Below, one piece after another: positions 10,683-56,140 of a DNA stretch of 64,000 bases. Made by a program: the position numbers and the translations under genes. Source of the stretch: Auanema rhodensis (Eukaryota; Animalia; Nematoda); contig OZ059895.1 of assembly GCA_964057225.1 (NCBI GenBank), positions 12,710,001 through 12,774,000 on the forward strand. Direction: 5' to 3'. Each line of letters opens with the position of its first letter. Positions within the stretch are counted from its first letter, which is position 1. The notes beneath the pieces were generated by a model that did no database searches, had not been told where the DNA came from, and was given only the letters and a program-made list of their open reading frames with translations.

Positions 10683-10700
10683 ATCTCGGTGGAACCTCCA
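10683..10700 (-). promoter_or_regulatory. Primer binding site complementary to the tRNA-Gln 3' end
   Basis: The + strand reads ATCTCGGTGGAACCTCCA, the conserved 3' 18 nt (including CCA) of metazoan tRNA-Gln as I recall it, directly adjacent to the LTR. Confidence 0.9.
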
Positions 10701-10829
10701 CGTTCCATTTAGATTCTCAATGGTTCCAAGTTGAGAGATCCAAACAGACTATGAGAAGATGAGTATGATTTTAAATATAAGTGTGTAATGTAAGGTGAAA
10801 TAAGAAACAAAAGATGAAATGTATAAAGG

Positions 10830-10835
10830 TTTATT
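10830..10835 (-). terminator. LTR polyadenylation signal AATAAA (element A)
   Basis: + strand tttatt, ~130 bp from the U5 end; the same offset is seen in element B. Confidence 0.6.
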
Positions 10836-10955
10836 GTTCGCATTATAATATAATTATACCAAGATTAAAGCTAGAGTTAAGAAAGAGAATATAAAGAAGA
10901 TAAAGAGAAAGTAAGATAATGAGATAATGAGATGCCTGAGTCTTGAGGACTCAGG

Positions 10956-10963
10956 TTTATATA
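10956..10963 (-). promoter_or_regulatory. LTR TATA box (TATATAAA)
   Basis: + strand tttatata, ~155 bp inside the LTR start and upstream of the polyA signal. Confidence 0.65.
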
Positions 10964-11206
10964 TCCATACAACTCCTACTCAGTTTACACAAATTGTTAC
11001 AAAGCTTATAAAAAGTGCATCTAGAATATTCTCAGAATTGCTTAAAAACTATCTGCATTAGTTTAATAATAGCAGCTGCCATGGTCAGCTGCTTTCCTTT
11101 GAGATATGTATGTAACATAACGTAGAAAATTACATAACTAACATGAAATTGGAAAAAAAACAATAACGAGGATAAGTATGTAAATCATTGAATATCAGGT
11201 ATTTTC

Positions 11207-11325
11207 GCTTACGACCATACCACGTTGAAAGTACGCCATCCCGTCCGATCTGGCAAGTGAAGCAACGTTGGGCCCGGTTAGTACTTGGATCGGAGACGGC
11301 TTGGGAATCCCGGGTGCCGTAAGCT
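11207..11325 (+). rRNA. 5S rRNA: First 5S rRNA gene (variant C53G)
   Basis: Full-length 5S; AAGTGAAGC in place of the array consensus AAGTCAAGC at 11259. Confidence 0.95.
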
Positions 11326-11339
11326 TTTCAAATTTTTTT
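11325..11339 (+). terminator. Pol III terminator (T4 then T7), repeated in every full unit
   Basis: GCTTTTCAAATTTTTTT directly after the 5S 3' end. Confidence 0.9.
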
Positions 11340-11340
11340 A

Positions 11341-11369
11341 ACGATCATACCACGTTGAAAGTACGCCAT
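11341..11369 (+). pseudogene. 29-bp duplicate of 5S nt 5-33 (one mismatch) downstream of the terminator, in every full unit
   Basis: ACGATCATACCACGTTGAAAGTACGCCAT vs gene ACGACCATACCACGTTGAAAGTACGCCAT, 130 bp apart. Confidence 0.92.
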
Positions 11370-11734
11370 GCAGCTGATTTTCAATTTTATCTCTTCAGTA
11401 ACAAATGTTTTTAATTTTCCAGCAGTTTTACTTAGATAGCTCAACCCAAGGCATCAAAATATCTTCAATCTTATTTCTATATTACAGTTATAAACCAGTA
11501 GTTTATGAACCTTCATCTTAACTTTACTGTTTCTATCTATTTCCTATTGAAACAAACATTGTTTTAACACTATACAACTGTGAAACCTTTTTTAATTTAT
11601 TGTATTTGGAGCTCATAAGATTTGATATCATCGAGGAATTTAGATGTAACGTAGAAAATTACATAACTAACATGAAATTGAAAAAAAACAATAACGAGGA
11701 TAAGTATGTAAATCATTGAATATCAGATTTTTTC

Positions 11735-11767
11735 GCTTACGACCATACCACGTTGAAAGTACGCCAT
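11735..11767 (+). pseudogene. Truncated 5S (nt 1-33 only), first of 15 copies
   Basis: GCTTACGACC...CGCCAT joined directly to GCAGCTG spacer. Starts at 11735, 12133, 15705, 16632, 17560, 21132, 23646, 25631, 29732, 31717, 33174, 34631, 42437, 45481, 53815. Confidence 0.95.
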
Positions 11768-13060
11768 GCAGCTGATTTTCAATTTTATCTCTTCCGTAAC
11801 AAATGTTTTTAATTTTCCAGCAGTTTTACTTAGATAGCTCAACCCAAGGCATCAAAATATCTTCAATCTTATTTCTATATTACAGTTATAAACCAGTAGT
11901 TTATGAACCTTCATCTTAACTTTACTGTTTCTATCTATTTCCTATTGAAACAAACATTGTTTTAACACTATACAACTGTGAAACCTTTTTTAATTTATTG
12001 TATTTGGAGCTCATAAGATTTGATATCATCGAGGAATTTAGATGTAACGTAGAAAATTACATAACTAACATGAAATTGAAAAAAAACAATAACGAGGATA
12101 AGTATGTAAATCATTGAATATCAGATTTTTTCGCTTACGACCATACCACGTTGAAAGTACGCCATGCAGCTGATTTTCAATTTTATCTCTTCCGTAACAA
12201 ATGTTTTTAATTTTCCAGCAGTTTTACTTAGATAGCTCAACCCAAGGCATCAAAATATCTTCAATCTTATTTCTATATTACAGTTATAAACCAGTAGTTT
12301 ATGAACCTTCATCTTAACTTTACTGTTTCTATCTATTTCCTATTGGAACAAACATTGTTTTAACACTATACAACTGTGAAACCTTTTTTAATTTATTGTA
12401 TTTGGAGCTCATAAGATTTGATATCATCGAGGAATTTAGATGTAACGTAGAAAATTACATAACTAACATGAAATTGGAAAAAAAACAATAACGAGGATAA
12501 GTATGTAAATCATTGAATATCAGGTATTTTCGCTTACGACCATACCACGTTGAAAGTACGCCATCCCGTCCGATCTGGCAAGTCAAGCAACGTTGGGCCC
12601 GGTTAGTACTTGGATCGGAGACGGCTTGGGAATCCCGGGTGCCGTAAGCTTTTCAAATTTTTTTAACGATCATACCACGTTGAAAGTACGCCATGCAGCT
12701 GATTTTCAATTTTATCTCTTCAGTAACAAATGTTTTTAATTTTCCAGCAGTTTTACTTAGATAGCTCAACCCAAGGCATCAAAATATCTTCAATCTTATT
12801 TCTATATTACAGTTATAAACCAGTAGTTTATGAACCTTCATCTTAACTTTACTGTTTCTATCTATTTCCTATTGAAACAAACATTGTTTTAACACTATAC
12901 AACTGTGAAACCTTTTTTAATTTATTGTATTTGGAGCTCATAAGATTTGATATCATCGAGTAATTTAGATGTAACGTAGAAAATTACATAACTAACATGA
13001 AATTGGAAAAAAAACAATAACGAGGATAAGTATGTAAATCATTGAATATCAGGTATTTTC

Positions 13061-13179
13061 GCTTACGACCATACCACGTTGAAAGTACGCCATCCCGTCC
13101 GATCTGGCAAGTCAAGCAACGTTGGGCCCGGTTAGTACTTGGATCGGAGACGGCTTGGGAATCCCGGGTGCCGTAAGCT
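13061..13179 (+). rRNA. 5S rRNA: Representative consensus 5S rRNA gene
   Basis: 5' GCTTACG pairs with 3' CGTAAGC (helix I); internal control region AGTCAAGCAACG...GTACTTGGATCGGAG. Confidence 0.98.
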
Positions 13180-16100
13180 TTTCAAATTTTTTTAACGATC
13201 ATACCACGTTGAAAGTACGCCATGCAGCTGATTTTCAATTTTATCTCTTCAGTAACAAATGTTTTTAATTTTCCAGCAGTTTTACTTAGATAGCTCAACC
13301 CAAGGCATCAAAATATCTTCAATCTTATTTCTATATTACAGTTATAAACCAGTAGTTTATGAACCTTCATCTTAACTTTACTGTTTCTATCTATTTCCTA
13401 TTGAAACAAACATTGTTTTAACACTATACAACTGTGAAACCTTTTTTAATTTATTGTATTTGGAGCTCATAAGATTTGATATCATCGAGGAATTTAGATG
13501 TAACGTAGAAAATTACATAACTAACATGAAATTGGAAAAAAAACAATAACGAGGATAAGTATGTAAATCATTGAATATCAGGTATTTTCGCTTACGACCA
13601 TACCACGTTGAAAGTACGCCATCCCGTCCGATCTGGCAAGTCAAGCAACGTTGGGCCCGGTTAGTACTTGGATCGGAGACGGCTTGGGAATCCCGGGTGC
13701 CGTAAGCTTTTCAAATTTTTTTAACGATCATACCACGTTGAAAGTACGCCATGCAGCTGATTTTCAATTTTATCTCTTCAGTAACAAATGTTTTTAATTT
13801 TCCAGCAGTTTTACTTAGATAGCTCAACCCAAGGCATCAAAATATCTTCAATCTTATTTCTATATTACAGTTATAAACCAGTAGTTTATGAACCTTCATC
13901 TTAACTTTACTGTTTCTATCTATTTCCTATTGAAACAAACATTGTTTTAACACTATACAACTGTGAAACCTTTTTTAATTTATTGTATTTGGAGCTCATA
14001 AGATTTGATATCATCGAGGAATTTAGATGTAACGTAGAAAATTACATAACTAACATGAAATTGGAAAAAAAACAATAACGAGGATAAGTATGTAAATCAT
14101 TGAATATCAGATTTTTTCGCTTACGACCATACCACGTTGAAAGTACGCCATCCCGTCCGATCTGGCAAGTCAAGCAACGTTGGGCCCGGTTAGTACTTGG
14201 ATCGAAGACGGCTTGGGAATCCCGGGTGCCGTAAGCTTTTCAAATTTTTTTAACGATCATACCACGTTGAAAGTACGCCATGCAGCTGATTTTCAATTTT
14301 ATCTCTTCAGTAACAAATGTTTTTAATTTTCCAGCAGTTTTACTTAGATAGCTCAACCCAAGGCATCAAAATATCTTCAATCTTATTTCTATATTACAGT
14401 TATAAACCAGTAGTTTATGAACCTTCATCTTAACTTTACTGTTTCTATCTATTTCCTATTGAAACAAACATTGTTTTAACACTATACAACTGTGAAACCT
14501 TTTTTAATTTATTGTATTTGGAGCTCATAAGATTTGATATCATCGAGGAATTTAGATGTAACGTAGAAAATTACATAACTAACATGAAATTGGAAAAAAA
14601 ACAATAACGAGGATAAGTATGTAAATCATTGAATATCAGGTATTTTCGCTTACGACCATACCACGTTGAAAGTACGCCATCCCGTCCGATCTGGCAAGTC
14701 AAGCAACGTTGGGCCCGGTTAGTACTTGGATCGGAGACGGCTTGGGAATCCCGGGTGCCGTAAGCTTTTCAAATTTTTTTAACGATCATACCACGTTGAA
14801 AGTACGCCATGCAGCTGATTTTCAATTTTATCTCTTCAGTAACAAATGTTTTTAATTTTCCAGCAGTTTTACTTAGATAGCTCAACCCAAGGCATCAAAA
14901 TATCTTCAATCTTATTTCTATGTTACAGTTATAAACCAGTAGTTTATGAACCTTCATCTTAACTTTACTGTTTCTATCTATTTCCTATTGAAACAAACAT
15001 TGTTTTAACACTATACAACTGTGAAACCTTTTTTAATTTATTGTATTTGGAGCTCATAAGATTTGATATCATCGAGGAATTTAGATGTAACGTAGAAAAT
15101 TACATAACTAACATGAAATTGGAAAAAAAACAATAACGAGGATAAGTATGTAAATCATTGAATATCAGGTATTTTCGCTTACGACCATACCACGTTGAAA
15201 GTACGCCATCCCGTCCGATCTGGCAAGTCAAGCAACGTTGGGCCCGGTTAGTACTTGGATCGGAGACGGCTTGGGAATCCCGGGTGCCGTAAGCTTTTCA
15301 ATTTTTTTTAACGATCATACCACGTTGAAAGTACGCAATGCAGCTGATTTTCAATTTTATCTCTTCCGTAACAAATGTTTTTAATTTTCCAGCAGTTTTA
15401 CTTAGATAGCTCAACCCAAGGCATCAAAATATCTTCAATCTTATTTCTATATTACAGTTATAAACCAGTAGTTTATGAACCTTCATCTTAACTTTACTGT
15501 TTCTATCTATTTCCTATTGAAACAAACATTGTTTAAACACTATACAACTGTGAAACCTTTTTTAATTTATTGTATTTGGAGCTCATAAGATTTGATATCA
15601 TCGAGGAATTTAGATGTAACGTAGAAAATTACATAACTAACATGAAATTGAAAAAAAACAATAACGAGGATAAGTATGTAAATCATTGAATATCAGATTT
15701 TTTCGCTTACGACCATACCACGTTGAAAGTACGCCATGCAGCTGATTTTCAATTTTATCTCTTCAGTAACAAATGTTTTTAATTTTCCAGCAGTTTTACT
15801 TAGATAGCTCAACCCAAGGCATCAAAATATCTTCAATCTTATTTCTATATTACAGTTATAAACCAGTAGTTTATGAACCTTCATCTTAACTTTACTGTTT
15901 CTATCTATTTCCTATTGAAACAAACATTGTTTTAACACTATACAACTGTGAAACCTTTTTTAATTTATTGTATTTGGAGCTCATAAGATTTGATATCATC
16001 GAGGAATTTAGATGTAACGTAGAAAATTACATAACTAACATGAAATTGGAAAAAAAACAATAACGAGGATAAGTATGTAAATCATTGAATATCAGATTTT

Positions 16101-19100
16101 TTCGCTTACGACCATACCACGTTGAAAGTACGCCATCCCGTCCGATCTGGCAAGTCAAGCAACGTTGGGCCCGGTTAGTACTTGGATCGGAGACGGCTTG
16201 GGAATCCCGGGTGCCGTAAGCTTTTCAAATTTTTTTAACGATCATACCACGTTGAAAGTACGCCATGCAGCTGATTTTCAATTTTATCTCTTCAGTAACA
16301 AATGTTTTTAATTTTCCAGCAGTTTTACTTAGATAGCTCAACCCAAGGCATCAAAATATCTTCAATCTTATTTCTATATTACAGTTATAAACCAGTAGTT
16401 TATGAACCTTCATCTTAACTTTACTGTTTCTATCTATTTCCTATTGAAACAAACATTGTTTTAACACTATACAACTGTGAAACCTTTTTTAATTTATTGT
16501 ATTTGGAGCTCATAAGATTTGATATCATCGAGGAATTTAGATGTAACGTAGAAAATTACATAACTAACATGAAATTGAAAAAAAACAATAACGAGGATAA
16601 GTATGTAAATCATTGAATATCAGATTTTTTCGCTTACGACCATACCACGTTGAAAGTACGCCATGCAGCTGATTTTCAATTTTATCTCTTCCGTAACAAA
16701 TGTTTTTAATTTTCCAGCAGTTTTACTTAGATAGCTCAACCCAAGGCATCAAAATATCTTCAATCTTATTTCTATATTACAGTTATAAACCAGTAGTTTA
16801 TGAACCTTCATCTTAACTTTACTGTTTCTATCTATTTCCTATTGGAACAAACATTGTTTTAACACTATACAACTGTGAAACCTTTTTTAATTTATTGTAT
16901 TTGGAGCTCATAAGATTTGATATCATCGAGGAATTTAGATGTAACGTAGAAAATTACATAACTAACATGAAATTGGAAAAAAAAACAATAACGAGGATAA
17001 GTATGTAAATCATTGAATATCAGGTATTTTCGCTTACGACCATACCACGTTGAAAGTACGCCATCCCGTCCGATCTGGCAAGTCAAGCAACGTTGGGCCC
17101 GGTTAGTACTTGGATCGGAGACGGCTTGGGAATCCCGGGTGCCGTAAGCTTTTCAAATTTTTTTAACGATCATACCACGTTGAAAGTACGCCATGCAGCT
17201 GATTTTCAATTTTATCTCTTCAGTAACAAATGTTTTTAATTTTCCAGCAGTTTTACTTAGATAGCTCAACCCAAGGCATCAAAATATCTTCAATCTTATT
17301 TCTATATTACAGTTATAAACCAGTAGTTTATGAACCTTCATCTTAACTTTACTGTTTCTATCTATTTCCTATTGAAACAAACATTGTTTTAACACTATAC
17401 AACTGTGAAACCTTTTTTAATTTATTGTATTTGGAGCTCATAAGATTTGATATCATCGAGGAATTTAGATGTAACGTAGAAAATTACATAACTAACATGA
17501 AATTGAAAAAAAACAATAACGAGGATAAGTATGTAAATCATTGAATATCAGATTTTTTCGCTTACGACCATACCACGTTGAAAGTACGCCATGCAGCTGA
17601 TTTTCAATTTTATCTCTTCCGTAACAAATGTTTTTAATTTTCCAGCAGTTTTACTTAGATAGCTCAACCCAAGGCATCAAAATATCTTCAATCTTATTTC
17701 TATATTACAGTTATAAACCAGTAGTTTATGAACCTTCATCTTAACTTTACTGTTTCTATCTATTTCCTATTGGAACAAACATTGTTTTAACACTATACAA
17801 CTGTGAAACCTTTTTTAATTTATTGTATTTGGAGCTCATAAGATTTGATATCATCGAGGAATTTAGATGTAACGTAGAAAATTACATAACTAACATGAAA
17901 TTGGAAAAAAAACAATAACGAGGATAAGTATGTAAATCATTGAATATCAGGTATTTTCGCTTACGACCATACCACGTTGAAAGTACGCCATCCCGTCCGA
18001 TCTGGCAAGTCAAGCAACGTTGGGCCCGGTTAGTACTTGGATCGGAGACGGCTTGGGAATCCCGGGTGCCGTAAGCTTTTCAAATTTTTTTAACGATCAT
18101 ACCACGTTGAAAGTACGCCATGCAGCTGATTTTCAATTTTATCTCTTCAGTAACAAATGTTTTTAATTTTCCAGCAGTTTTACTTAGATAGCTCAACCCA
18201 AGGCATCAAAATATCTTCAATCTTATTTCTATATTACAGTTATAAACCAGTAGTTTATGAACCTTCATCTTAACTTTACTGTTTCTATCTATTTCCTATT
18301 GAAACAAACATTGTTTTAACACTATACAACTGTGAAACCTTTTTTAATTTATTGTATTTGGAGCTCATAAGATTTGATATCATCGAGGAATTTAGATGTA
18401 ACGTAGAAAATTACATAACTAACATGAAATTGGAAAAAAAACAATAACGAGGATAAGTATGTAAATCATTGAATATCAGGTATTTTCGCTTACGACCATA
18501 CCACGTTGAAAGTACGCCATCCCGTCCGATCTGGCAAGTCAAGCAACGTTGGGCCCGGTTAGTACTTGGATCGGAGACGGCTTGGGAATCCCGGGTGCCG
18601 TAAGCTTTTCAAATTTTTTTAACGATCATACCACGTTGAAAGTACGCCATGCAGCTGATTTTCAATTTTATCTCTTCAGTAACAAATGTTTTTAATTTTC
18701 CAGCAGTTTTACTTAGATAGCTCAACCCAAGGCATCAAAATATCTTCAATCTTATTTCTATATTACAGTTATAAACCAGTAGTTTATGAACCTTCATCTT
18801 AACTTTACTGTTTCTATCTATTTCCTATTGAAACAAACATTGTTTTAACACTATACAACTGTGAAACCTTTTTTAATTTATTGTATTTGGAGCTCATAAG
18901 ATTTGATATCATCGAGGAATTTAGATGTAACGTAGAAAATTACATAACTAACATGAAATTGGAAAAAAAACAATAACGAGGATAAGTATGTAAATCATTG
19001 AATATCAGGTATTTTCGCTTACGACCATACCACGTTGAAAGTACGCCATCCCGTCCGATCTGGCAAGTCAAGCAACGTTGGGCCCGGTTAGTACTTGGAT

Positions 19101-22100
19101 CGGAGACGGCTTGGGAATCCCGGGTGCCGTAAGCTTTTCAAATTTTTTTAACGATCATACCACGTTGAAAGTACGCCATGCAGCTGATTTTCAATTTTAT
19201 CTCTTCAGTAACAAATGTTTTTAATTTTCCAGCAGTTTTACTTAGATAGCTCAACCCAAGGCATCAAAATATCTTCAATCTTATTTCTATATTACAGTTA
19301 TAAACCAGTAGTTTATGAACCTTCATCTTAACTTTACTGTTTCTATCTATTTCCTATTGAAACAAACATTGTTTTAACACTATACAACTGTGAAACCTTT
19401 TTTAATTTATTGTATTTGGAGCTCATAAGATTTGATATCATCGAGGAATTTAGATGTAACGTAGAAAATTACATAACTAACATGAAATTGGAAAAAAAAC
19501 AATAACGAGGATAAGTATGTAAATCATTGAATATCAGATTTTTTCGCTTACGACCATACCACGTTGAAAGTACGCCATCCCGTCCGATCTGGCAAGTCAA
19601 GCAACGTTGGGCCCGGTTAGTACTTGGATCGGAGACGGCTTGGGAATCCCGGGTGCCGTAAGCTTTTCAAATTTTTTTAACGATCATACCACGTTGAAAG
19701 TACGCCATGCAGCTGATTTTCAATTTTATCTCTTCAGTAACAAATGTTTTTAATTTTCCAGCAGTTTTACTTAGATAGCTCAACCCAAGGCATCAAAATA
19801 TCTTCAATCTTATTTCTATATTACAGTTATAAACCAGTAGTTTATGAACCTTCATCTTAACTTTACTGTTTCTATCTATTTCCTATTGAAACAAACATTG
19901 TTTTAACACTATACAACTGTGAAACCTTTTTTAATTTATTGTATTTGGAGCTCATAAGATTTGATATCATCGAGGAATTTAGATGTAACGTAGAAAATTA
20001 CATAACTAACATGAAATTGGAAAAAAAACAATAACGAGGATAAGTATGTAAATCATTGAATATCAGGTATTTTCGCTTACGACCATACCACGTTGAAAGT
20101 ACGCCATCCCGTCCGATCTGGCAAGTCAAGCAACGTTGGGCCCGGTTAGTACTTGGATCGGAGACGGCTTGGGAATCCCGGGTGCCGTAAGCTTTTCAAA
20201 TTTTTTTAACGATCATACCACGTTGAAAGTACGCCATGCAGCTGATTTTCAATTTTATCTCTTCAGTAACAAATGTTTTTAATTTTCCAGCAGTTTTACT
20301 TAGATAGCTCAACCCAAGGCATCAAAATATCTTCAATCTTATTTCTATGTTACAGTTATAAACCAGTAGTTTATGAACCTTCATCTTAACTTTACTGTTT
20401 CTATCTATTTCCTATTGAAACAAACATTGTTTTAACACTATACAACTGTGAAACCTTTTTTAATTTATTGTATTTGGAGCTCATAAGATTTGATATCATC
20501 GAGGAATTTAGATGTAACGTAGAAAATTACATAACTAACATGAAATTGGAAAAAAAACAATAACGAGGATAAGTATGTAAATCATTGAATATCAGGTATT
20601 TTCGCTTACGACCATACCACGTTGAAAGTACGCCATCCCGTCCGATCTGGCAAGTCAAGCAACGTTGGGCCCGGTTAGTACTTGGATCGGAGACGGCTTG
20701 GGAATCCCGGGTGCCGTAAGCTTTTCAATTTTTTTTAACGATCATACCACGTTGAAAGTACGCAATGCAGCTGATTTTCAATTTTATCTCTTCCGTAACA
20801 AATGTTTTTAATTTTCCAGCAGTTTTACTTAGATAGCTCAACCCAAGGCATCAAAATATCTTCAATCTTATTTCTATATTACAGTTATAAACCAGTAGTT
20901 TATGAACCTTCATCTTAACTTTACTGTTTCTATCTATTTCCTATTGAAACAAACATTGTTTAAACACTATACAACTGTGAAACCTTTTTTAATTTATTGT
21001 ATTTGGAGCTCATAAGATTTGATATCATCGAGGAATTTAGATGTAACGTAGAAAATTACATAACTAACATGAAATTGAAAAAAAACAATAACGAGGATAA
21101 GTATGTAAATCATTGAATATCAGATTTTTTCGCTTACGACCATACCACGTTGAAAGTACGCCATGCAGCTGATTTTCAATTTTATCTCTTCAGTAACAAA
21201 TGTTTTTAATTTTCCAGCAGTTTTACTTAGATAGCTCAACCCAAGGCATCAAAATATCTTCAATCTTATTTCTATATTACAGTTATAAACCAGTAGTTTA
21301 TGAACCTTCATCTTAACTTTACTGTTTCTATCTATTTCCTATTGAAACAAACATTGTTTTAACACTATACAACTGTGAAACCTTTTTTAATTTATTGTAT
21401 TTGGAGCTCATAAGATTTGATATCATCGAGGAATTTAGATGTAACGTAGAAAATTACATAACTAACATGAAATTGGAAAAAAAACAATAACGAGGATAAG
21501 TATGTAAATCATTGAATATCAGATTTTTTCGCTTACGACCATACCACGTTGAAAGTACGCCATCCCGTCCGATCTGGCAAGTCAAGCAACGTTGGGCCCG
21601 GTTAGTACTTGGATCGGAGACGGCTTGGGAATCCCGGGTGCCGTAAGCTTTTCAAATTTTTTTAACGATCATACCACGTTGAAAGTACGCCATGCAGCTG
21701 ATTTTCAATTTTATCTCTTCAGTAACAAATGTTTTTAATTTTCCAGCAGTTTTACTTAGATAGCTCAACCCAAGGCATCAAAATATCTTCAATCTTATTT
21801 CTATATTACAGTTATAAACCAGTAGTTTATGAACCTTCATCTTAACTTTACTGTTTCTATCTATTTCCTATTGAAACAAACATTGTTTTAACACTATACA
21901 ACTGTGAAACCTTTTTTAATTTATTGTATTTGGAGCTCATAAGATTTGATATCATCGAGGAATTTAGATGTAACGTAGAAAATTACATAACTAACATGAA
22001 ATTGGAAAAAAAACAATAACGAGGATAAGTATGTAAATCATTGAATATCAGATTTTTTCGCTTACGACCATACCACGTTGAAAGTACGCCATCCCGTCCG

Positions 22101-25100
22101 ATCTGGCAAGTCAAGCAACGTTGGGCCCGGTTAGTACTTGGATCGGAGACGGCTTGGGAATCCCGGGTGCCGTAAGCTTTTCAAATTTTTTTAACGATCA
22201 TACCACGTTGAAAGTACGCCATGCAGCTGATTTTCAATTTTATCTCTTCAGTAACAAATGTTTTTAATTTTCCAGCAGTTTTACTTAGATAGCTCAACCC
22301 AAGGCATCAAAATATCTTCAATCTTATTTCTATATTACAGTTATAAACCAGTAGTTTATGAACCTTCATCTTAACTTTACTGTTTCTATCTATTTCCTAT
22401 TGAAACAAACATTGTTTTAACACTATACAACTGTGAAACCTTTTTTAATTTATTGTATTTGGAGCTCATAAGATTTGATATCATCGAGGAATTTAGATGT
22501 AACGTAGAAAATTACATAACTAACATGAAATTGGAAAAAAAACAATAACGAGGATAAGTATGTAAATCATTGAATATCAGGTATTTTCGCTTACGACCAT
22601 ACCACGTTGAAAGTACGCCATCCCGTCCGATCTGGCAAGTCAAGCAACGTTGGGCCCGGTTAGTACTTGGATCGGAGACGGCTTGGGAATCCCGGGTGCC
22701 GTAAGCTTTTCAAATTTTTTTAACGATCATACCACGTTGAAAGTACGCCATGCAGCTGATTTTCAATTTTATCTCTTCAGTAACAAATGTTTTTAATTTT
22801 CCAGCAGTTTTACTTAGATAGCTCAACCCAAGGCATCAAAATATCTTCAATCTTATTTCTATGTTACAGTTATAAACCAGTAGTTTATGAACCTTCATCT
22901 TAACTTTACTGTTTCTATCTATTTCCTATTGAAACAAACATTGTTTTAACACTATACAACTGTGAAACCTTTTTTAATTTATTGTATTTGGAGCTCATAA
23001 GATTTGATATCATCGAGGAATTTAGATGTAACGTAGAAAATTACATAACTAACATGAAATTGGAAAAAAAACAATAACGAGGATAAGTATGTAAATCATT
23101 GAATATCAGGTATTTTCGCTTACGACCATACCACGTTGAAAGTACGCCATCCCGTCCGATCTGGCAAGTCAAGCAACGTTGGGCCCGGTTAGTACTTGGA
23201 TCGGAGACGGCTTGGGAATCCCGGGTGCCGTAAGCTTTTCAATTTTTTTTAACGATCATACCACGTTGAAAGTACGCAATGCAGCTGATTTTCAATTTTA
23301 TCTCTTCCGTAACAAATGTTTTTAATTTTCCAGCAGTTTTACTTAGATAGCTCAACCCAAGGCATCAAAATATCTTCAATCTTATTTCTATATTACAGTT
23401 ATAAACCAGTAGTTTATGAACCTTCATCTTAACTTTACTGTTTCTATCTATTTCCTATTGAAACAAACATTGTTTAAACACTATACAACTGTGAAACCTT
23501 TTTTAATTTATTGTATTTGGAGCTCATAAGATTTGATATCATCGAGGAATTTAGATGTAACGTAGAAAATTACATAACTAACATGAAATTGAAAAAAAAC
23601 AATAACGAGGATAAGTATGTAAATCATTGAATATCAGATTTTTTCGCTTACGACCATACCACGTTGAAAGTACGCCATGCAGCTGATTTTCAATTTTATC
23701 TCTTCAGTAACAAATGTTTTTAATTTTCCAGCAGTTGTACTTAGATAGCTCAACCCAAGGCATCACAATATCTTCAATCTTATTTCTATATTACAGTTAT
23801 AAACCAGTAGTTTATGAACCTTCATCTTAACTTTACTGTTTCTATCTATTTCCTATTGAAACAAACATTGTTTTAACACTATACAACTGTGAAACCTTTT
23901 TTAATTTATTGTATTTGGAGCTCATAAGATTTGATATCATCGAGGAATTTAGATGTAACGTAGAAAATTACATAACTAACATGAAATTGGAAAAAAAACA
24001 ATAACGAGGATAAGTATGTAAATCATTGAATATCAGATTTTTTCGCTTACGACCATACCACGTTGAAAGTACGCCATCCCGTCCGATCTGGCAAGTCAAG
24101 CAACGTTGGGCCCGGTTAGTACTTGGATCGGAGACGGCTTGGGAATCCCGGGTGCCGTAAGCTTTTCAAATTTTTTTAACGATCATACCACGTTGAAAGT
24201 ACGCCATGCAGCTGATTTTCAATTTTATCTCTTCAGTAACAAATGTTTTTAATTTTCCAGCAGTTTTACTTAGATAGCTCAACCCAAGGCATCAAAATAT
24301 CTTCAATCTTATTTCTATATTACAGTTATAAACCAGTAGTTTATGAACCTTCATCTTAACTTTACTGTTTCTATCTATTTCCTATTGAAACAAACATTGT
24401 TTTAACACTATACAACTGTGAAACCTTTTTTAATTTATTGTATTTGGAGCTCATAAGATTTGATATCATCGAGGAATTTAGATGTAACGTAGAAAATTAC
24501 ATAACTAACATGAAATTGGAAAAAAAACAATAACGAGGATAAGTATGTAAATCATTGAATATCAGGTATTTTCGCTTACGACCATACCACGTTGAAAGTA
24601 CGCCATCCCGTCCGATCTGGCAAGTCAAGCAACGTTGGGCCCGGTTAGTACTTGGATCGGAGACGGCTTGGGAATCCCGGGTGCCGTAAGCTTTTCAAAT
24701 TTTTTTAACGATCATACCACGTTGAAAGTACGCCATGCAGCTGATTTTCAATTTTATCTCTTCAGTAACAAATGTTTTTAATTTTCCAGCAGTTTTACTT
24801 AGATAGCTCAACCCAAGGCATCAAAATATCTTCAATCTTATTTCTATATTACAGTTATAAACCAGTAGTTTATGAACCTTCATCTTAACTTTACTGTTTC
24901 TATCTATTTCCTATTGAAACAAACATTGTTTTAACACTATACAACTGTGAAACCTTTTTTAATTTATTGTATTTGGAGCTCATAAGATTTGATATCATCG
25001 AGGAATTTAGATGTAACGTAGAAAATTACATAACTAACATGAAATTGGAAAAAAAACAATAACGAGGATAAGTATGTAAATCATTGAATATCAGGTATTT

Positions 25101-43100: not shown

Positions 43101-46100
43101 TTATTTCTATATTACAGTTATAAACCAGTAGTTTATGAACCTTCATCTTAACTTTACTGTTTCTATCTATTTCCTATTGAAACAAACATTGTTTTAACAC
43201 TATACAACTGTGAAACCTTTTTTAATTTATTGTATTTGGAGCTCATAAGATTTGATATCATCGAGGAATTTAGATGTAACGTAGAAAATTACATAACTAA
43301 CATGAAATTGGAAAAAAAACAATAACGAGGATAAGTATGTAAATCATTGAATATCAGGTATTTTCGCTTACGACCATACCACGTTGAAAGTACGCCATCC
43401 CGTCCGATCTGGCAAGTCAAGCAACGTTGGGCCCGGTTAGTACTTGGATCGGAGACGGCTTGGGAATCCCGGGTGCCGTAAGCTTTTCAAATTTTTTTAA
43501 CGATCATACCACGTTGAAAGTACGCCATGCAGCTGATTTTCAATTTTATCTCTTCAGTAACAAATGTTTTTAATTTTCCAGCAATTTTACTTAGATAGCT
43601 CAACCCAAGGCATCAAAATATCTTCAATCTTATTTCTATATTACAGTTATAAACCAGTAGTTTATGAACCTTCATCTTAACTTTACTGTTTCTATCTATT
43701 TCCTATTGAAACAAACATTGTTTTAACACTATACAACTGTGAAACCTTTTTTAATTTATTGTATTTGGAGCTCATAAGATTTGATATCATCGAGGAATTT
43801 AGATGTAACGTAGAAAATTACATAACTAACATGAAATTGGAAAAAAAACAATAACGAGGATAAGTATGTAAATCATTGAATATCAGGTATTTTCGCTTAC
43901 GACCATACCACGTTGAAAGTACGCCATCCCGTCCGATCTGGCAAGTCAAGCAACGTTGGGCCCGGTTAGTACTTGGATCGGAGACGGCTTGGGAATCCCG
44001 GGTGCCGTAAGCTTTTCAAATTTTTTTAACGATCATACCACGTTGAAAGTACGCCATGCAGCTGATTTTCAATTTTATCTCTTCAGTAACAAATGTTTTT
44101 AATTTTCCAGCAATTTTACTTAGATAGCTCAACCCAAGGCATCAAAATATCTTCAATCTTATTTCTATATTACAGTTATAAACCAGTAGTTTATGAACCT
44201 TCATCTTAACTTTACTGTTTCTATCTATTTCCTATTGAAACAAACATTGTTTTAACACTATACAACTGTGAAACCTTTTTTAATTTATTGTATTTGGAGC
44301 TCATAAGATTTGATATCATCGAGGAATTTAGATGTAACGTAGAAAATTACATAACTAACATGAAATTGGAAAAAAAACAATAACGAGGATAAGTATGTAA
44401 ATCATTGAATATCAGGTATTTTCGCTTACGACCATACCACGTTGAAAGTACGCCATCCCGTCCGATCTGGCAAGTCAAGCAACGTTGGGCCCGGTTAGTA
44501 CTTGGATCGGAGACGGCTTGGGAATCCCGGGTGCCGTAAGCTTTTCAAAGTTTTTTAACGATCATACCACGTTGAAAGTACGCCATGCAGCTGATTTTCA
44601 ATTTTATCTCTTCAGTAACAAATGTTTTTAATTTTCCAGCAGTTTTACTTAGATAGCTCAACCCAAGGCATCAAAATATCTTCAATCTTATTTCTATATT
44701 ACAGTTATAAACCAGTAGTTTATGAACCTTCATCTTAACTTCACTGTTTCTATCTATTTCCTATTGAAACAAACATTGTTTTAACACTATACAACTGTGA
44801 AACCTTTTTTAATTTATTGTATTTGGAGCTCATAAGATTTGATATCATCGAGGAATTTAGATGTAACGTAGAAAATTACATAACTAACATGAAATTGGAA
44901 AAAAAACAATAACGAGGATAAGTATGTAAATCATTGAATATCAGGTATTTTCGCTTACGACCATACCACGTTGAAAGTACGCCATCCCGTCCGATCTGGC
45001 AAGTCAAGCAACGTTGGGCCCGGTTAGTACTTGGATCGGAGACGGCTTGGGAATCCCGGGTGCCGTAAGCTTTTCAAATTTTTTTAACGATCATACCACG
45101 TTGAAAGTACGCCATGCAGCTGATTTTCAATTTTATCTCTTCAGTAACAAATGTTTTTAATTTTCCAGCAATTTTACTTAGATAGCTCAACCCAAGGCAT
45201 CAAAATATCTTCAATCTTATTTCTATATTACAGTTATAAACCAGTAGTTTATGAACCTTCATCTTAACTTTACTGTTTCTATCTATTTCCTATTGAAACA
45301 AACATTGTTTAAACACTATACAACTGTGAAACCTTTTTTAATTTATTGTATTTGGAGCTCATAAGATTTGATATCATCGAGGAATTTAGATGTAACGTAG
45401 AAAATTACATAACTAACATGAAATTGAAAAAAAACAATAACGAGGATAAGTATGTAAATCATTGAATATCAGATTTTTTCGCTTACGACCATACCACGTT
45501 GAAAGTACGCCATGCAGCTGATTTTCAATTTTATCTCTTCCGTAACAAATGTTTTTAATTTTCCAGCAGTTTTACTTAGATAGCTCAACCCAAGGCATCA
45601 AAATATCTTCAATCTTATTTCTATATTACAGTTATAAACCAGTAGTTTATGAACCTTCATCTTAACTTTACTGTTTCTATCTATTTCCTATTGGAACAAA
45701 CATTGTTTTAACACTATACAACTGTGAAACCTTTTTTAATTTATTGTATTTGGAGCTCATAAGATTTGATATCATCGAGGAATTTAGATGTAACGTAGAA
45801 AATTACATAACTAACATGAAATTGGAAAAAAAAACAATAACGAGGATAAGTATGTAAATCATTGAATATCAGGTATTTTCGCTTACGACCATACCACGTT
45901 GAAAGTACGCCATCCCGTCCGATCTGGCAAGTCAAGCAACGTTGGGCCCGGTTAGTACTTGGATCGGAGACGGCTTGGGAATCCCGGGTGCCGTAAGCTT
46001 TTCAAATTTTTTTAACGATCATACCACGTTGAAAGTACGCCATGCAGCTGATTTTCAATTCTATCTCTTCAGTAACAAATGTTTTTAATTTTCCAGCAGT

Positions 46101-49100
46101 TTTACTTAGATAGCTCAACCCAAGGCATCAAAATATCTTCAATCTTATTTCTATATTACAGTTATAAACCAGTAGTTTATGAACCTTCATCTTAACTTTA
46201 CTGTTTCTATCTATTTCCTATTGAAACAAACATTGTTTTAACACTATACAACTGTGAAACCTTTTTTAATTTATTGTATTTGGAGCTCATAAGATTTGAT
46301 ATCATCGAGGAATTTAGATGTAACGTAGAAAATTACATAACTAACATGAAATTGGAAAAAAAACAATAACGAGGATAAGTATGTAAATCATTGAATATCA
46401 GGTATTTTCGCTTACGACCATACCACGTTGAAAGTACGCCATCCCGTCCGATCTGGCAAGTCAAGCAACGTTGGGCCCGGTTAGTACTTGGATCGGAGAC
46501 GGCTTGGGAATCCCGGGTGCCGTAAGCTTTTCAAATTTTTTTAACGATCATACCACGTTGAAAGTACGCCATGCAGCTGATTTTCAATTTTATCTCTTCA
46601 GTAACAAATGTTTTTAATTTTCCAGCAATTTTACTTAGATAGCTCAACCCAAGGCATCAAAATATCTTCAATCTTATTTCTATATTACAGTTATAAACCA
46701 GTAGTTTATGAACCTTCATCTTAACTTTACTGTTTCTATCTATTTCCTATTGAAACAAACATTGTTTTAACACTATACAACTGTGAAACCTTTTTTAATT
46801 TATTGTATTTGGAGCTCATAAGATTTGATATCATCGAGGAATTTAGATGTAACGTAGAAAATTACATAACTAACATGAAATTGGAAAAAAAACAATAACG
46901 AGGATAAGTATGTAAATCATTGAATATCAGGTATTTTCGCTTACGACCATACCACGTTGAAAGTACGCCATCCCGTCCGATCTGGCAAGTCAAGCAACGT
47001 TGGGCCCGGTTAGTACTTGGATCGGAGACGGCTTGGGAATCCCGGGTGCCGTAAGCTTTTCAAATTTTTTTAACGATCATACCACGTTGAAAGTACGCCA
47101 TGCAGCTGATTTTCAATTTTATCTCTTCAGTAACAAATGTTTTTAATTTTCCAGCAATTTTACTTAGATAGCTCAACCCAAGGCATCAAAATATCTTCAA
47201 TCTTATTTCTATATTACAGTTATAAACCAGTAGTTTATGAACCTTCATCTTAACTTTACTGTTTCTATCTATTTCCTATTGAAACAAACATTGTTTTAAC
47301 ACTATACAACTGTGAAACCTTTTTTAATTTATTGTATTTGGAGCTCATAAGATTTGATATCATCGAGGAATTTAGATGTAACGTAGAAAATTACATAACT
47401 AACATGAAATTGGAAAAAAAACAATAACGAGGATAAGTATGTAAATCATTGAATATCAGGTATTTTCGCTTACGACCATACCACGTTGAAAGTACGCCAT
47501 CCCGTCCGATCTGGCAAGTCAAGCAACGTTGGGCCCGGTTAGTACTTGGATCGGAGACGGCTTGGGAATCCCGGGTGCCGTAAGCTTTTCAAAGTTTTTT
47601 AACGATCATACCACGTTGAAAGTACGCCATGCAGCTGATTTTCAATTTTATCTCTTCAGTAACAAATGTTTTTAATTTTCCAGCAGTTTTACTTAGATAG
47701 CTCAACCCAAGGCATCAAAATATCTTCAATCTTATTTCTATATTACAGTTATAAACCAGTAGTTTATGAACCTTCATCTTAACTTCACTGTTTCTATCTA
47801 TTTCCTATTGAAACAAACATTGTTTTAACACTATACAACTGTGAAACCTTTTTTAATTTATTGTATTTGGAGCTCATAAGATTTGATATCATCGAGGAAT
47901 TTAGATGTAACGTAGAAAATTACATAACTAACATGAAATTGGAAAAAAAACAATAACGAGGATAAGTATGTAAATCATTGAATATCAGGTATTTTCGCTT
48001 ACGACCATACCACGTTGAAAGTACGCCATCCCGTCCGATCTGGCAAGTCAAGCAACGTTGGGCCCGGTTAGTACTTGGATCGGAGACGGCTTGGGAATCC
48101 CGGGTGCCGTAAGCTTTTCAAATTTTTTTAACGATCATACCACGTTGAAAGTACGCCATGCAGCTGATTTTCAATTTTATCTCTTCAGTAACAAATGTTT
48201 TTAATTTTCCAGCAATTTTACTTAGATAGCTCAACCCAAGGCATCAAAATATCTTCAATCTTATTTCTATATTACAGTTATAAACCAGTAGTTTATGAAC
48301 CTTCATCTTAACTTTACTGTTTCTATCTATTTCCTATTGAAACAAACATTGTTTTAACACTATACAACTGTGAAACCTTTTTTAATTTATTGTATTTGGA
48401 GCTCATAAGATTTGATATCATCGAGGAATTTAGATGTAACGTAGAAAATTACATAACTAACATGAAATTGGAAAAAAAACAATAACGAGGATAAGTATGT
48501 AAATCATTGAATATCAGGTATTTTCGCTTACGACCATACCACGTTGAAAGTACGCCATCCCGTCCGATCTGGCAAGTCAAGCAACGTTGGGCCCGGTTAG
48601 TACTTGGATCGGAGACGGCTTGGGAATCCCGGGTGCCGTAAGCTTTTCAAATTTTTTTAACGATCATACCACGTTGAAAGTACGCCATGCAGCTGATTTT
48701 CAATTTTATCTCTTCAGTAACAAATGTTTTTAATTTTCCAGCAGTTTTACTTAGATAGCTCAACCCAAGGCATCAAAATATCTTCAATCTTATTTCTATA
48801 TTACAGTTATAAACCAGTAGTTTATGAACCTTCATCTTAACTTTACTGTTTCTATCTATTTCCTATTGAAACAAACATTGTTTTAACACTATACAACTGT
48901 GAAACCTTTTTTAATTTATTGTATTTGGAGCTCATAAGATTTGATATCATCGAGGAATTTAGATGTAACGTAGAAAATTACATAACTAACATGAAATTGG
49001 AAAAAAAACAATAACGAGGATAAGTATGTAAATCATTGAATATCAGGTATTTTCGCTTACGACCATACCACGTTGAAAGTACGCCATCCCGTCCGATCTG

Positions 49101-52100
49101 GCAAGTCAAGCAACGTTGGGCCCGGTTAGTACTTGGATCGGAGACGGCTTGGGAATCCCGGGTGCCGTAAGCTTTTCAAATTTTTTTAACGATCATACCA
49201 CGTTGAAAGTACGCCATGCAGCTGATTTTCAATTTTATCTCTTCAGTAACAAATGTTTTTAATTTTCCAGCAGTTTTACTTAGATAGCTCAACCCAAGGC
49301 ATCAAAATATCTTCAATCTTATTTCTATATTACAGTTATAAACCAGTAGTTTATGAACCTTCATCTTAACTTTACTGTTTCTATCTATTTCCTATTGAAA
49401 CAAACATTGTTTTAACACTATACAACTGTGAAACCTTTTTTAATTTATTGTATTTGGAGCTCATAAGATTTGATATCATCGAGGAATTTAGATGTAACGT
49501 AGAAAATTACATAACTAACATGAAATTGGAAAAAAAACAATAACGAGGATAAGTATGTAAATCATTGAATATCAGGTATTTTCGCTTACGACCATACCAC
49601 GTTGAAAGTACGCCATCCCGTCCGATCTGGCAAGTCAAGCAACGTTGGGCCCGGTTAGTACTTGGATCGGAGACGGCTTGGGAATCCCGGGTGCCGTAAG
49701 CTTTTCAAATTTTTTTAACGATCATACCACGTTGAAAGTACGCCATGCAGCTGATTTTCAATTTTATCTCTTCAGTAACAAATGTTTTTAATTTTCCAGC
49801 AGTTTTACTTAGATAGCTCAACCCAAGGCATCAAAATATCTTCAATCTTATTTCTATATTACAGTTATAAACCAGTAGTTTATGAACCTTCATCTTAACT
49901 TTACTGTTTCTATCTATTTCCTATTGAAACAAACATTGTTTTAACACTATACAACTGTGAAACCTTTTTTAATTTATTGTATTTGGAGCTCATAAGATTT
50001 GATATCATCGAGGAATTTAGATGTAACGTAGAAAATTACATAACTAACATGAAATTGGAAAAAAAACAATAACGAGGATAAGTATGTAAATCATTGAATA
50101 TCAGGTATTTTCGCTTACGACCATACCACGTTGAAAGTACGCCATCCCGTCCGATCTGGCAAGTCAAGCAACGTTGGGCCCGGTTAGTACTTGGATCGGA
50201 GACGGCTTGGGAATCCCGGGTGCCGTAAGCTTTTCAAATTTTTTTAACGATCATACCACGTTGAAAGTACGCCATGCAGCTGATTTTCAATTTTATCTCT
50301 TCAGTAACAAATGTTTTTAATTTTCCAGCAGTTTTACTTAGATAGCTCAACCCAAGGCATCAAAATATCTTCAATCTTATTTCTATATTACAGTTATAAA
50401 CCAGTAGTTTATGAACCTTCATCTTAACTTTACTGTTTCTATCTATTTCCTATTGAAACAAACATTGTTTTAACACTATACAACTGTGAAACCTTTTTTA
50501 ATTTATTGTATTTGGAGCTCATAAGATTTGATATCATCGAGGAATTTAGATGTAACGTAGAAAATTACATAACTAACATGAAATTGGAAAAAAAACAATA
50601 ACGAGGATAAGTATGTAAATCATTGAATATCAGGTATTTTCGCTTACGACCATACCACGTTGAAAGTACGCCATCCCGTCCGATCTGGCAAGTCAAGCAA
50701 CGTTGGGCCCGGTTAGTACTTGGATCGGAGACGGCTTGGGAATCCCGGGTGCCGTAAGCTTTTCAAATTTTTTTAACGATCATACCACGTTGAAAGTACG
50801 CCATGCAGCTGATTTTCAATTTTATCTCTTCAGTAACAAATGTTTTTAATTTTCCAGCAATTTTACTTAGATAGCTCAACCCAAGGCATCAAAATATCTT
50901 CAATCTTATTTCTATATTACAGTTATAAACCAGTAGTTTATGAACCTTCATCTTAACTTTACTGTTTCTATCTATTTCCTATTGAAACAAACATTGTTTT
51001 AACACTATACAACTGTGAAACCTTTTTTAATTTATTGTATTTGGAGCTCATAAGATTTGATATCATCGAGGAATTTAGATGTAACGTAGAAAATTACATA
51101 ACTAACATGAAATTGGAAAAAAAACAATAACGAGGATAAGTATGTAAATCATTGAATATCAGGTATTTTCGCTTACGACCATACCACGTTGAAAGTACGC
51201 CATCCCGTCCGATCTGGCAAGTCAAGCAACGTTGGGCCCGGTTAGTACTTGGATCGGAGACGGCTTGGGAATCCCGGGTGCCGTAAGCTTTTCAAATTTT
51301 TTTAACGATCATACCACGTTGAAAGTACGCCATGCAGCTGATTTTCAATTTTATCTCTTCAGTAACAAATGTTTTTAATTTTCCAGCAGTTTTACTTAGA
51401 TAGCTCAACCCAAGGCATCAAAATATCTTCAATCTTATTTCTATATTACAGTTATAAACCAGTAGTTTATGAACCTTCATCTTAACTTTACTGTTTCTAT
51501 CTATTTCCTATTGAAACAAACATTGTTTTAACACTATACAACTGTGAAACCTTTTTTAATTTATTGTATTTGGAGCTCATAAGATTTGATATCATCGAGG
51601 AATTTAGATGTAACGTAGAAAATTACATAACTAACATGAAATTGGAAAAAAAACAATAACGAGGATAAGTATGTAAATCATTGAATATCAGGTATTTTCG
51701 CTTACGACCATACCACGTTGAAAGTACGCCATCCCGTCCGATCTGGCAAGTCAAGCAACGTTGGGCCCGGTTAGTACTTGGATCGGAGACGGCTTGGGAA
51801 TCCCGGGTGCCGTAAGCTTTTCAAATTTTTTTAACGATCATACCACGTTGAAAGTACGCCATGCAGCTGATTTTCAATTTTATCTCTTCAGTAACAAATG
51901 TTTTTAATTTTCCAGCAGTTTTACTTAGATAGCTCAACCCAAGGCATCAAAATATCTTCAATCTTATTTCTATATTACAGTTATAAACCAGTAGTTTATG
52001 AACCTTCATCTTAACTTTACTGTTTCTATCTATTTCCTATTGAAACAAACATTGTTTTAACACTATACAACTGTGAAACCTTTTTTAATTTATTGTATTT

Positions 52101-55100
52101 GGAGCTCATAAGATTTGATATCATCGAGGAATTTAGATGTAACGTAGAAAATTACATAACTAACATGAAATTGGAAAAAAAACAATAACGAGGATAAGTA
52201 TGTAAATCATTGAATATCAGGTATTTTCGCTTACGACCATACCACGTTGAAAGTACGCCATCCCGTCCGATCTGGCAAGTCAAGCAACGTTGGGCCCGGT
52301 TAGTACTTGGATCGGAGACGGCTTGGGAATCCCGGGTGCCGTAAGCTTTTCAAATTTTTTTAACGATCATACCACGTTGAAAGTACGCCATGCAGCTGAT
52401 TTTCAATTTTATCTCTTCAGTAACAAATGTTTTTAATTTTCCAGCAGTTTTACTTAGATAGCTCAACCCAAGGCATCAAAATATCTTCAATCTTATTTCT
52501 ATATTACAGTTATAAACCAGTAGTTTATGAACCTTCATCTTAACTTTACTGTTTCTATCTATTTCCTATTGAAACAAACATTGTTTTAACACTATACAAC
52601 TGTGAAACCTTTTTTAATTTATTGTATTTGGAGCTCATAAGATTTGATATCATCGAGGAATTTAGATGTAACGTAGAAAATTACATAACTAACATGAAAT
52701 TGGAAAAAAAACAATAACGAGGATAAGTATGTAAATCATTGAATATCAGATTTTTTCGCTTACGACCATACCACGTTGAAAGTACGCCATCCCGTCCGAT
52801 CTGGCAAGTCAAGCAACGTTGGGCCCGGTTAGTACTTGGATCGGAGACGGCTTGGGAATCCCGGGTGCCGTAAGCTTTTCAAATTTTTTTAACGATCATA
52901 CCACGTTGAAAGTACGCCATGCAGCTGATTTTCAATTTTATCTCTTCAGTAACAAATGTTTTTAATTTTCCAGCAGTTTTACTTAGATAGCTCAACCCAA
53001 GGCATCAAAATATCTTCAATCTTATTTCTATATTACAGTTATAAACCAGTAGTTTATGAACCTTCATCTTAACTTTACTGTTTCTATCTATTTCCTATTG
53101 AAACAAACATTGTTTTAACACTATACAACTGTGAAACCTTTTTTAATTTATTGTATTTGGAGCTCATAAGATTTGATATCATCGAGGAATTTAGATGTAA
53201 CGTAGAAAATTACATAACTAACATGAAATTGGAAAAAAAACAATAACGAGGATAAGTATGTAAATCATTGAATATCAGGTATTTTCGCTTACGACCATAC
53301 CACGTTGAAAGTACGCCATCCCGTCCGATCTGGCAAGTCAAGCAACGTTGGGCCCGGTTAGTACTTGGATCGGAGACGGCTTGGGAATCCCGGGTGCCGT
53401 AAGCTTTTCAAATTTTTTTAACGATCATACCACGTTGAAAGTACGCCATGCAGCTGATTTTCAATTTTATCTCTTCAGTAACAAATGTTTTTAATTTTCC
53501 AGCAGTTTTACTTAGATAGCTCAACCCAAGGCATCAAAATATCTTCAATCTTATTTCTATATTACAGTTATAAACCAGTAGTTTATGAACCTTCATCTTA
53601 ACTTTACTGTTTCTATCTATTTCCTATTGAAACAAACATTGTTTTAACACTATACAACTGTGAAACCTTTTTTAATTTATTGTATTTGGAGCTCATAAGA
53701 TTTGATATCATCGAGGAATTTAGATGTAACGTAGAAAATTACATAACTAACATGAAATTGAAAAAAAACAATAACGAGGATAAGTATGTAAATCATTGAA
53801 TATCAGATTTTTTCGCTTACGACCATACCACGTTGAAAGTACGCCATGCAGCTGATTTTCAATTTTATCTCTTCAGTAACAAATGTTTTTAATTTTCCAG
53901 CAGTTTTACTTAGATAGCTCAACCCAAGGCATCAAAATATCTTCAATCTTATTTCTATATTACAGTTATAAACCAGTAGTTTATGAACCTTCATCTTAAC
54001 TTTACTGTTTCTATCTATTTCCTATTGAAACAAACATTGTTTTAACACTATACAACTGTGAAACCTTTTTTAATTTATTGTATTTGGAGCTCATAAGATT
54101 TGATATCATCGAGGAATTTAGATGTAACGTAGAAAATTACATAACTAACATGAAATTGGAAAAAAAACAATAACGAGGATAAGTATGTAAATCATTGAAT
54201 ATCAGGTATTTTCGCTTACGACCATACCACGTTGAAAGTACGCCATCCCGTCCGATCTGGCAAGTCAAGCAACGTTGGGCCCGGTTAGTACTTGGATCGG
54301 AGACGGCTTGGGAATCCCGGGTGCCGTAAGCTTTTCAAATTTTTTTAACGATCATACCACGTTGAAAGTACGCCATGCAGCTGATTTTCAATTTTATCTC
54401 TTCAGTAACAAATGTTTTTAATTTTCCAGCAGTTTTACTTAGATAGCTCAACCCAAGGCATCAAAATATCTTCAATCTTATTTCTATATTACAGTTATAA
54501 ACCAGTAGTTTATGAACCTTCATCTTAACTTTACTGTTTCTATCTATTTCCTATTGAAACAAACATTGTTTTAACACTATACAACTGTGAAACCTTTTTT
54601 AATTTATTGTATTTGGAGCTCATAAGATTTGATATCATCGAGGAATTTAGATGTAACGTAGAAAATTACATAACTAACATGAAATTGGAAAAAAAACAAT
54701 AACGAGGATAAGTATGTAAATCATTGAATATCAGGTATTTTCGCTTACGACCATACCACGTTGAAAGTACGCCATCCCGTCCGATCTGGCAAGTCAAGCA
54801 ACGTTGGGCCCGGTTAGTACTTGGATCGGAGACGGCTTGGGAATCCCGGGTGCCGTAAGCTTTTCAAATTTTTTTAACGATCATACCACGTTGAAAGTAC
54901 GCCATGCAGCTGATTTTCAATTTTATCTCTTCAGTAACAAATGTTTTTAATTTTCCAGCAGTTTTACTTAGATAGCTCAACCCAAGGCATCAAAATATCT
55001 TCAATCTTATTTCTATATTACAGTTATAAACCAGTAGTTTATGAACCTTCATCTTAACTTTACTGTTTCTATCTATTTCCTATTGAAACAAACATTGTTT

Positions 55101-55271
55101 TAACACTATACAACTGTGAAACCTTTTTTAATTTATTGTATTTGGAGCTCATAAGATTTGATATCATCGAGGAATTTAGATGTAACGTAGAAAATTACAT
55201 AACTAACATGAAATTGGAAAAAAAACAATAACGAGGATAAGTATGTAAATCATTGAATATCAGGTATTTTC

Positions 55272-55390
55272 GCTTACGACCATACCACGTTGAAAGTACG
55301 CCATCCCGTCCGATCTGGCAAGTCAAGCAACGTTGGGCCCGGTTAGTACTTGGATCGGAGACGGCTTGGGAATCCCGGGTGCCGTAAGCT
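55272..55390 (+). rRNA. 5S rRNA: Last 5S rRNA gene before element B
   Basis: Consensus sequence. Confidence 0.97.
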
Positions 55391-55586
55391 TTTCAAATTT
55401 TTTTAACGATCATACCACGTTGAAAGTACGCCATGCAGCTGATTTTCAATTTTATCTCTTCAGTAACAAATGTTTTTAATTTTCCAGCAGTTTTACTTAG
55501 ATAGCTCAACCCAAGGCATCAAAATATCTTCAATCTTATTTCTATATTACAGTTATAAACCAGTAGTTTATGAACCTTCATCTTAA

Positions 55587-56140
55587 CGTTCCCTTATGCT
55601 CCTGCGTCGATAATATAAACCATTGTAGTTTATACTATGACGCGCATAGTATTCCTTGGTGTAGCGGTGAGGAATAAAGAGCATAAGGTCAATCATAAGA
55701 TAAAAGAGAGAAAGATTTATTAGCATGAAACTACAACAATAATATACAAAGATAAAGATACAATACAATAATATAAATATAAGTATAAAGACTAAACTAC
55801 AAGCCGTCCATGAGCTTGCTAAGAGGCGAACTCCCGACCAAGGGAACGAGGGAAGGCGGAGCCATTCCTCGGTCCTCTGGTCGTCTGGCTCTAACCCTTC
55901 AGCTACATATATGGGGAGTCCGAATGGAACGTGCCCTTTTTCAAAGATTTTTCGCGTCCGCGCGATATAAAGAGTTTTTAGTGTATATGTAGCTGAGTTT
56001 TAGAGTCTAGGAGTTTACAAATAAAATTAAAAGTTTTAAAATCTACATGTAGAAAGATATATAAATAATTTTAATAGGTTTCTTTATGGTATTAAGATAG
56101 AATTTGAATACAATAATAGGTTTTATGTTATTTTGTAACG
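55587..56140 (-). repeat. Putative 3' LTR of element B (right boundary uncertain)
   Basis: Left end CGTTCC is identical to element A's U5 end; AATAAA on - at 55716-55721; TATA-like CATATATGTAG near 55903-55913; candidate U3 start TGTAACG at 56134-56140 resembles element A's TGTAACA. No clear PPT found. Confidence 0.55.

Follow-up and report, generated by a model that had tools for sequence, protein, structure and literature searches.

Retrotransposons that insert next to genes transcribed by RNA polymerase III (Pol III) have been tabulated for fungi and social amoebae (PMC5911963). In Ty3, the SH3 domain is followed by a vestigial chromodomain that binds Brf1, and insertion occurs 2-3 bp from the start site (PMC8632968). 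Ty1 uses a broad window of about 1 kb upstream of tRNA and 5S genes (PMC5911963). Insertion of transposable elements into 5S spacers has been described as relatively frequent, Ty3/gypsy examples being known from fish, and concerted evolution has been discussed as a remover of such insertions (PMC10946416). Nematodes harbor GAG-ENV-POL errantiviruses with an HSV/gB-type env, described by Chary and Hayashi, and a tRNA-Gln primer is given in 8 of 11 Caenorhabditis rows among the rows considered in supplement 1 of that work (PMC13524379). The terms "5S rRNA," "rDNA," and "target site" do not occur in the paper, unlike the setting described here, and neither CG termini nor 5S insertion, both of which were seen in the present elements, was found in the part of it available (PMC13524379). 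A literature search covering titles and abstract openings returned no nematode LTR element described as targeting 5S or Pol III genes; Sacco et al. (2022), who reportedly labeled nematode GAG-ENV-POL elements NERV, may describe termini or duplications.

The 64-kb window (the whole stretch of DNA that was analyzed) contains a 5S array flanked by two gag-env-pol Ty3/gypsy elements, termed A and B, both of which are antisense to 5S. The array (11118..55586, + strand, 44.5 kb) has a 529-bp unit. An Rfam search of the window identified 73 full 5S genes, all on the + strand between 11207 and 55390, in units of 528-530 bp. These are accompanied by 15 short units of 398-400 bp retaining only the 5' ~30 nt of 5S, and the last unit is cut to 315 bp by B. 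The joint between element A and the spacer is at 11117/11118, which places it 89 bp ahead of the first 5S gene (start 11207). For element B, the joint is at 55586/55587; the preceding 5S start (55272) lies 315 bp back, and the next one would be expected 214 bp further on. The B joint, previously left ambiguous between CTTAA^C and CTTAAC^, was assigned to CTTAA^C because the B LTR then forms an inverted repeat (CGTTCC...GGAACG) and the A LTR also ends in GGAACG against its primer-binding site. The spacer matched the modal unit right up to the joints (89/89 positions at A and 315/315 at B), and neither a degenerate unit nor unique DNA was present between LTR and spacer at either of them. Because exact LTR termini abut unchanged spacer, we infer that the junctions were made by integrase; spacer would therefore have been present on both sides at the time of insertion, whatever happened later. 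The observation that two elements join 5S spacer at their LTR ends was confirmed as real. Within the window, there were no 5S genes beyond either element, no second LTR of A or B, and no tRNA genes. An SL1 16-mer had no exact match in the window, array included; in Caenorhabditis elegans, 5S and SL1 alternate. Three of seven singleton variants, including two of the three inside 5S genes, were located beside A (11207-14237) in the first 7 of the 88 units, a clustering with a post hoc p of 0.014. The units adjoining B had zero singleton variants.

Element A is encoded on the - strand by a single frame (421..9549, 3042 residues) comprising gag (residues 309-398, Pfam), a gB-like env (about residues 625-1660, limits read from the translation), PR, RT, RH, and IN, the last of which carries a GPY/F motif followed by an acidic tail. 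The 5' LTR of A (10701..11117, - strand, 417 bp, TGTTAC...GGAACG) contains TATA-like and AATAAA motifs. Its 3' end was fixed because an 18-nt primer-binding site (10683..10700, - strand) adjoins. The last 12 nt of this site are identical to the ones that supplement 1 of PMC13524379 assigns to tRNA-Gln in two Caenorhabditis elements. The LTR start was supported by one contig each in public sequencing runs X5 and X7 that tracks the LTR from the element side up to 11118; beyond it, these contigs run into an apparent purine tract resembling that before the B LTR. On the + strand, the A LTR start (ATGTAACA, within 11110-11125) agrees with the native target site (ATGTAACG) in 7 of 8 bases, although the LTR end is kept complete at the junction. 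The env of A contains a long Thr/Ser-rich, mucin-like stretch at about 5600-6100, which is much shorter in B.

Element B is likewise encoded on the - strand by a single frame (56640..63998 and beyond, 2452 residues), which is truncated within gag where the window ends. Its order is env (PF24664, PF00606), PR, RT, RH, IN, and a short acidic tail. Pfam gave no match for the B gag, the remnant of which was recognized by alignment to A. The 3' LTR (55587..55931, - strand, 345 bp) is preceded at a distance of 2 nt by a putative polypurine tract (55934..55942, - strand). The LTR termini are TG...CG in A and CG...CG in B; neither has TG...CA, and LTR finders demanding TG...CA would be expected to miss such elements. 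Within the literature compared, CG ends are otherwise described only for Troyka, which resembles B at both ends and A at one (PMC12440569). Troyka, however, is described as lacking GPF/Y and as lying outside Metaviridae (PMC12440569), whereas A and B have the GPY motif and group with nematode gypsy-type elements.

The pol order PR-RT-RH-IN of Ty3/gypsy is present in both elements, and a gB-like env with a furin-like site and a TM-like segment sits between gag and pol. PF24664 scored above the cut-off in B, and PF00606 scored below it in both (E 5e-5 and 3e-9). In gene order, gB-like env, and, for A, the tRNA-Gln primer-binding site, they are alike to the elements of Chary and Hayashi (PMC13524379). 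The nearest pol relatives were Caenorhabditis proteins with matching env domains (46-50% identity over the query), and eight Caenorhabditis proteins shared 55-63% identity with the RT-RH regions of A and B. A tree of RT-RH sequences (26 rows, rooted at the midpoint only, no Troyka sequence) placed A and B as sisters (99/97). Together with the eight Caenorhabditis proteins, they formed a clade of 10 rows (99/97), which was nested in one of 15 rows (99/99). The elements are members of the already described nematode GAG-ENV-POL group, and sequence comparison places A and B as sister families of its gB-type Ty3/gypsy branch (PMC13524379). These relatives point to a nematode as the probable host. 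The statement in the earlier note that two different families are involved holds insofar as the families are distinct (identities of 72.6% in RT, 43.5% in IN, and 30.6% in env), but they are sisters and not independent lineages. The A LTR end had 0 matches in metagenome contigs, and no loci related to A or B were found in viral contigs. A set of 79 metagenome loci was dropped as relatives: an env match was seen in none of them, and the best RT identity was about 46%.

Part or most of the A end is contained in 11 public runs from three studies, and contigs of four of these were compared with 9000-11206. This stretch covers the spacer only from -89 to -1, and the B LTR lies outside it. In run X1, an A-type LTR 3' end was joined to spacer position -34 (11172..11173), a junction absent here in the window. 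The joint (11171 to 10700) was seen in one contig at a depth of 71.7 with 36 letters on its short side, the intervening letters not being known. Its orientation was antisense to 5S, as for A and B; three alike would be expected with p = 0.25. Mapping of further copies, as proposed in the earlier note, thus yielded a third junction from the contigs of four runs, but only one of the three joints listed linked LTR to spacer. The joint filter drops records, and a further 171 loose ends and 2203 pieces lie beyond those listed, so that 5S junctions may be undercounted. Two flanks at the A LTR 3' end in run X3 matched nothing in the compared stretch and could represent spacer upstream of -89 or tRNA genes. 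The A junction of the window itself is spanned by none of the 32 contig pieces listed, from which nothing follows. The internal depth of A was roughly 6-35 times that of rare variants (depth not being equivalent to copy number), and A seems to be multicopy. Under uniform insertion, 0.001-0.06 such joints would be expected, a range that rests on an assumed genome of 60-200 Mb with 73-300 genes and 50-200 insertions, which are assumptions and not measurements. The -34 junction favors repeated use of the array and is the best support for it. A test based on both A events lying <100 bp from a start (p = 0.036) was rejected because only that part of the spacer had been compared. Between 9000 and 10700, the window copy of A disagreed with every one of the four runs at five positions (>=89% of depth); it is therefore older or from another strain.

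A and B have a Ty3/gypsy integrase in common with Ty3 (also Tj1 and DGLT-A), and the Ty3-like mechanism invoked earlier was examined. Ty3 was the best PDB sequence match of the A integrase (E 5.9e-29), and the aligned region did not go beyond chain residue 1426, immediately after the GPY/F motif. A model of the A integrase built with 33 sequences placed the SH3 domain at residues 334-384; the tail after it was modeled with low confidence and contained no strands. No Pfam chromodomain was detected in the tail of A or B, and a fold search returned the PFV and Ty3 integrases and nothing further. Whereas Ty3 inserts 1-4 bp from the start by means of its vestigial chromodomain (PMC5911963, PMC8632968), the sites here are -34, -89, and -214, none of which falls in that range, and no such domain is predicted. 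With neither a narrow window at the start site nor a chromodomain after the SH3 domain, a mechanism of the Ty3 type is unlikely.

The other features put forward in the earlier note did not exceed chance expectation. Neither element interrupts a gene and both have the same orientation, as had been stated, but these outcomes carry little weight (p = 0.60 and p = 0.5, respectively, for chance alone). A common TAAC site was not borne out. TAAC occurs eight times per 5S unit, and two random cuts have some touching 4-mer in common in 10.8-14.2% of pairs (p = 0.11-0.14). With the LTR ends fixed, the candidate duplications were TAAC (A) and TTAA (B) at 4 bp and TAACG (A) and CTTAA (B) at 5 bp. The two elements were in register only at 3 bp (TAA, p = 0.029); four lengths were tried, giving a summed p of about 0.05. 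The X1 junction yielded GGA, AGGA, or GAGGA, without TAA, and whichever length between 3 and 6 bp was taken, the sites at -34, -89, and -214 had no duplication motif in common. TAAC is thus weak evidence for targeting. The palindromic TRYA/ATAT 4-bp target of Drosophila gypsy-type elements was not matched by TAAC, TTAA, or AGGA either. The agreement at 3 bp could be read as a sequence preference, in which CG-ended LTRs make a 3-bp duplication and favor TAA with a C behind it, a sequence common in the spacer. Troyka elements do combine CG...CG termini with 3-bp duplications (PMC12440569), and related families tend to have target motifs in common (PMC3276498). The agreement is nevertheless broken by the GGA of the X1 junction. 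In most Drosophila gypsy families, the duplication is 4 bp long (PMC3276498), and a short motif alone cannot account for a bias toward the array. We consider such a preference very improbable.

The reading that we prefer, at about even confidence, is that the elements land and persist repeatedly in the array through a regional bias combined with tolerance and not through a TAAC site or a Ty3-type tether. Integration would favor the putatively open, AT-rich region of the array, and spacer insertions would cost little among dozens of redundant 5S copies. Array turnover and concerted evolution would remove most insertions, so that few would be seen, and other copies would sit elsewhere in the genome. 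The intact LTR termini, the scattered sites, the improbable third junction, the apparent multicopy state of A, and the lack of a predicted chromodomain speak for this reading, as do the single LTR-spacer joint among those listed, the two unmatched X3 flanks, and the frequency ascribed to transposable element insertions in 5S spacers (PMC10946416). Against it, three antisense events in sister families are what would be expected from a heritable integrase preference, and a passive bias may be too weak to account for three events. If bias and tolerance are indeed responsible, the locus is a clear but ordinary case of elements sheltering in 5S spacer. The safe harbor suggested in the earlier note is accordingly plausible in view of the X1 junction, but without its TAAC site and Ty3-like mechanism, for which support was not obtained. 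It is improbable, in our judgment, that chance or rearrangement accounts for the pattern, with dispersed elements at which the array simply stops following insertion into terminal units or a later deletion. In favor of this view, the window was selected for this look, the 5S genes stop at both elements within it, and the singletons clustered beside A are as expected at an older boundary; moreover, four Caenorhabditis latens relatives are on four different chromosome records (supplement 1, PMC13524379). The direct contact of LTR and unaltered spacer and the use of another spacer site in run X1 argue against mere bordering.

Active tethering to Pol III genes as in Ty1 is a less likely alternative to regional bias. 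Here, the integrase of the sub-clade would be bound to the Pol III machinery, possibly by its acidic C-terminal tail, and would direct insertion to a wide stretch upstream of 5S and tRNA genes. The Ty1 window is compatible with the positions of A and B (PMC5911963). Ty1 belongs to the Copia superfamily, lacks env, and has a demonstrated tether, whereas A and B are Ty3/gypsy elements with env, and their tether is hypothetical. A Ty1 tether can consist of a short disordered motif. Such a motif could escape a fold model and a Pfam search, and most copies could be located at tRNA genes, invisible to the run comparison. Three spacer junctions in one orientation in sister families point in the same direction, and the -34 site resembles the distances given for DGLT-A upstream of tRNAs (13-33 bp) and for TRE5 upstream of 5S (37-41 bp) (PMC5911963). 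However, every place in an array of 529-bp units is <1 kb from a start, so that position proves little, the -34 site was findable only within -89 to -1, and one joint was obtained in four runs. The tails of A and B have no visible motif in common beyond acidity, and the hosts in the review's table are only fungal and amoebozoan (PMC5911963). The most specific form of the idea, which we regard as doubtful, is that an env-carrying nematode sub-clade with CG-ended LTRs evolved Pol III tethering that, with no Ty3 chromodomain, directs antisense insertion to sites upstream of 5S and tRNA genes, as an animal counterpart of Ty1 and DGLT-A. If true, Pol III targeting by an animal element with an env gene would represent another independent origin and offer a small integrase tail to test.

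Within the array itself, a second copy of the 5' end of 5S (30 nt) follows directly behind the gene in full units. In the 15 short units, which recur in higher-order blocks, the 130 bp separating the two 30-nt copies are missing. The short units probably arose by deletion between the 30-nt repeats.
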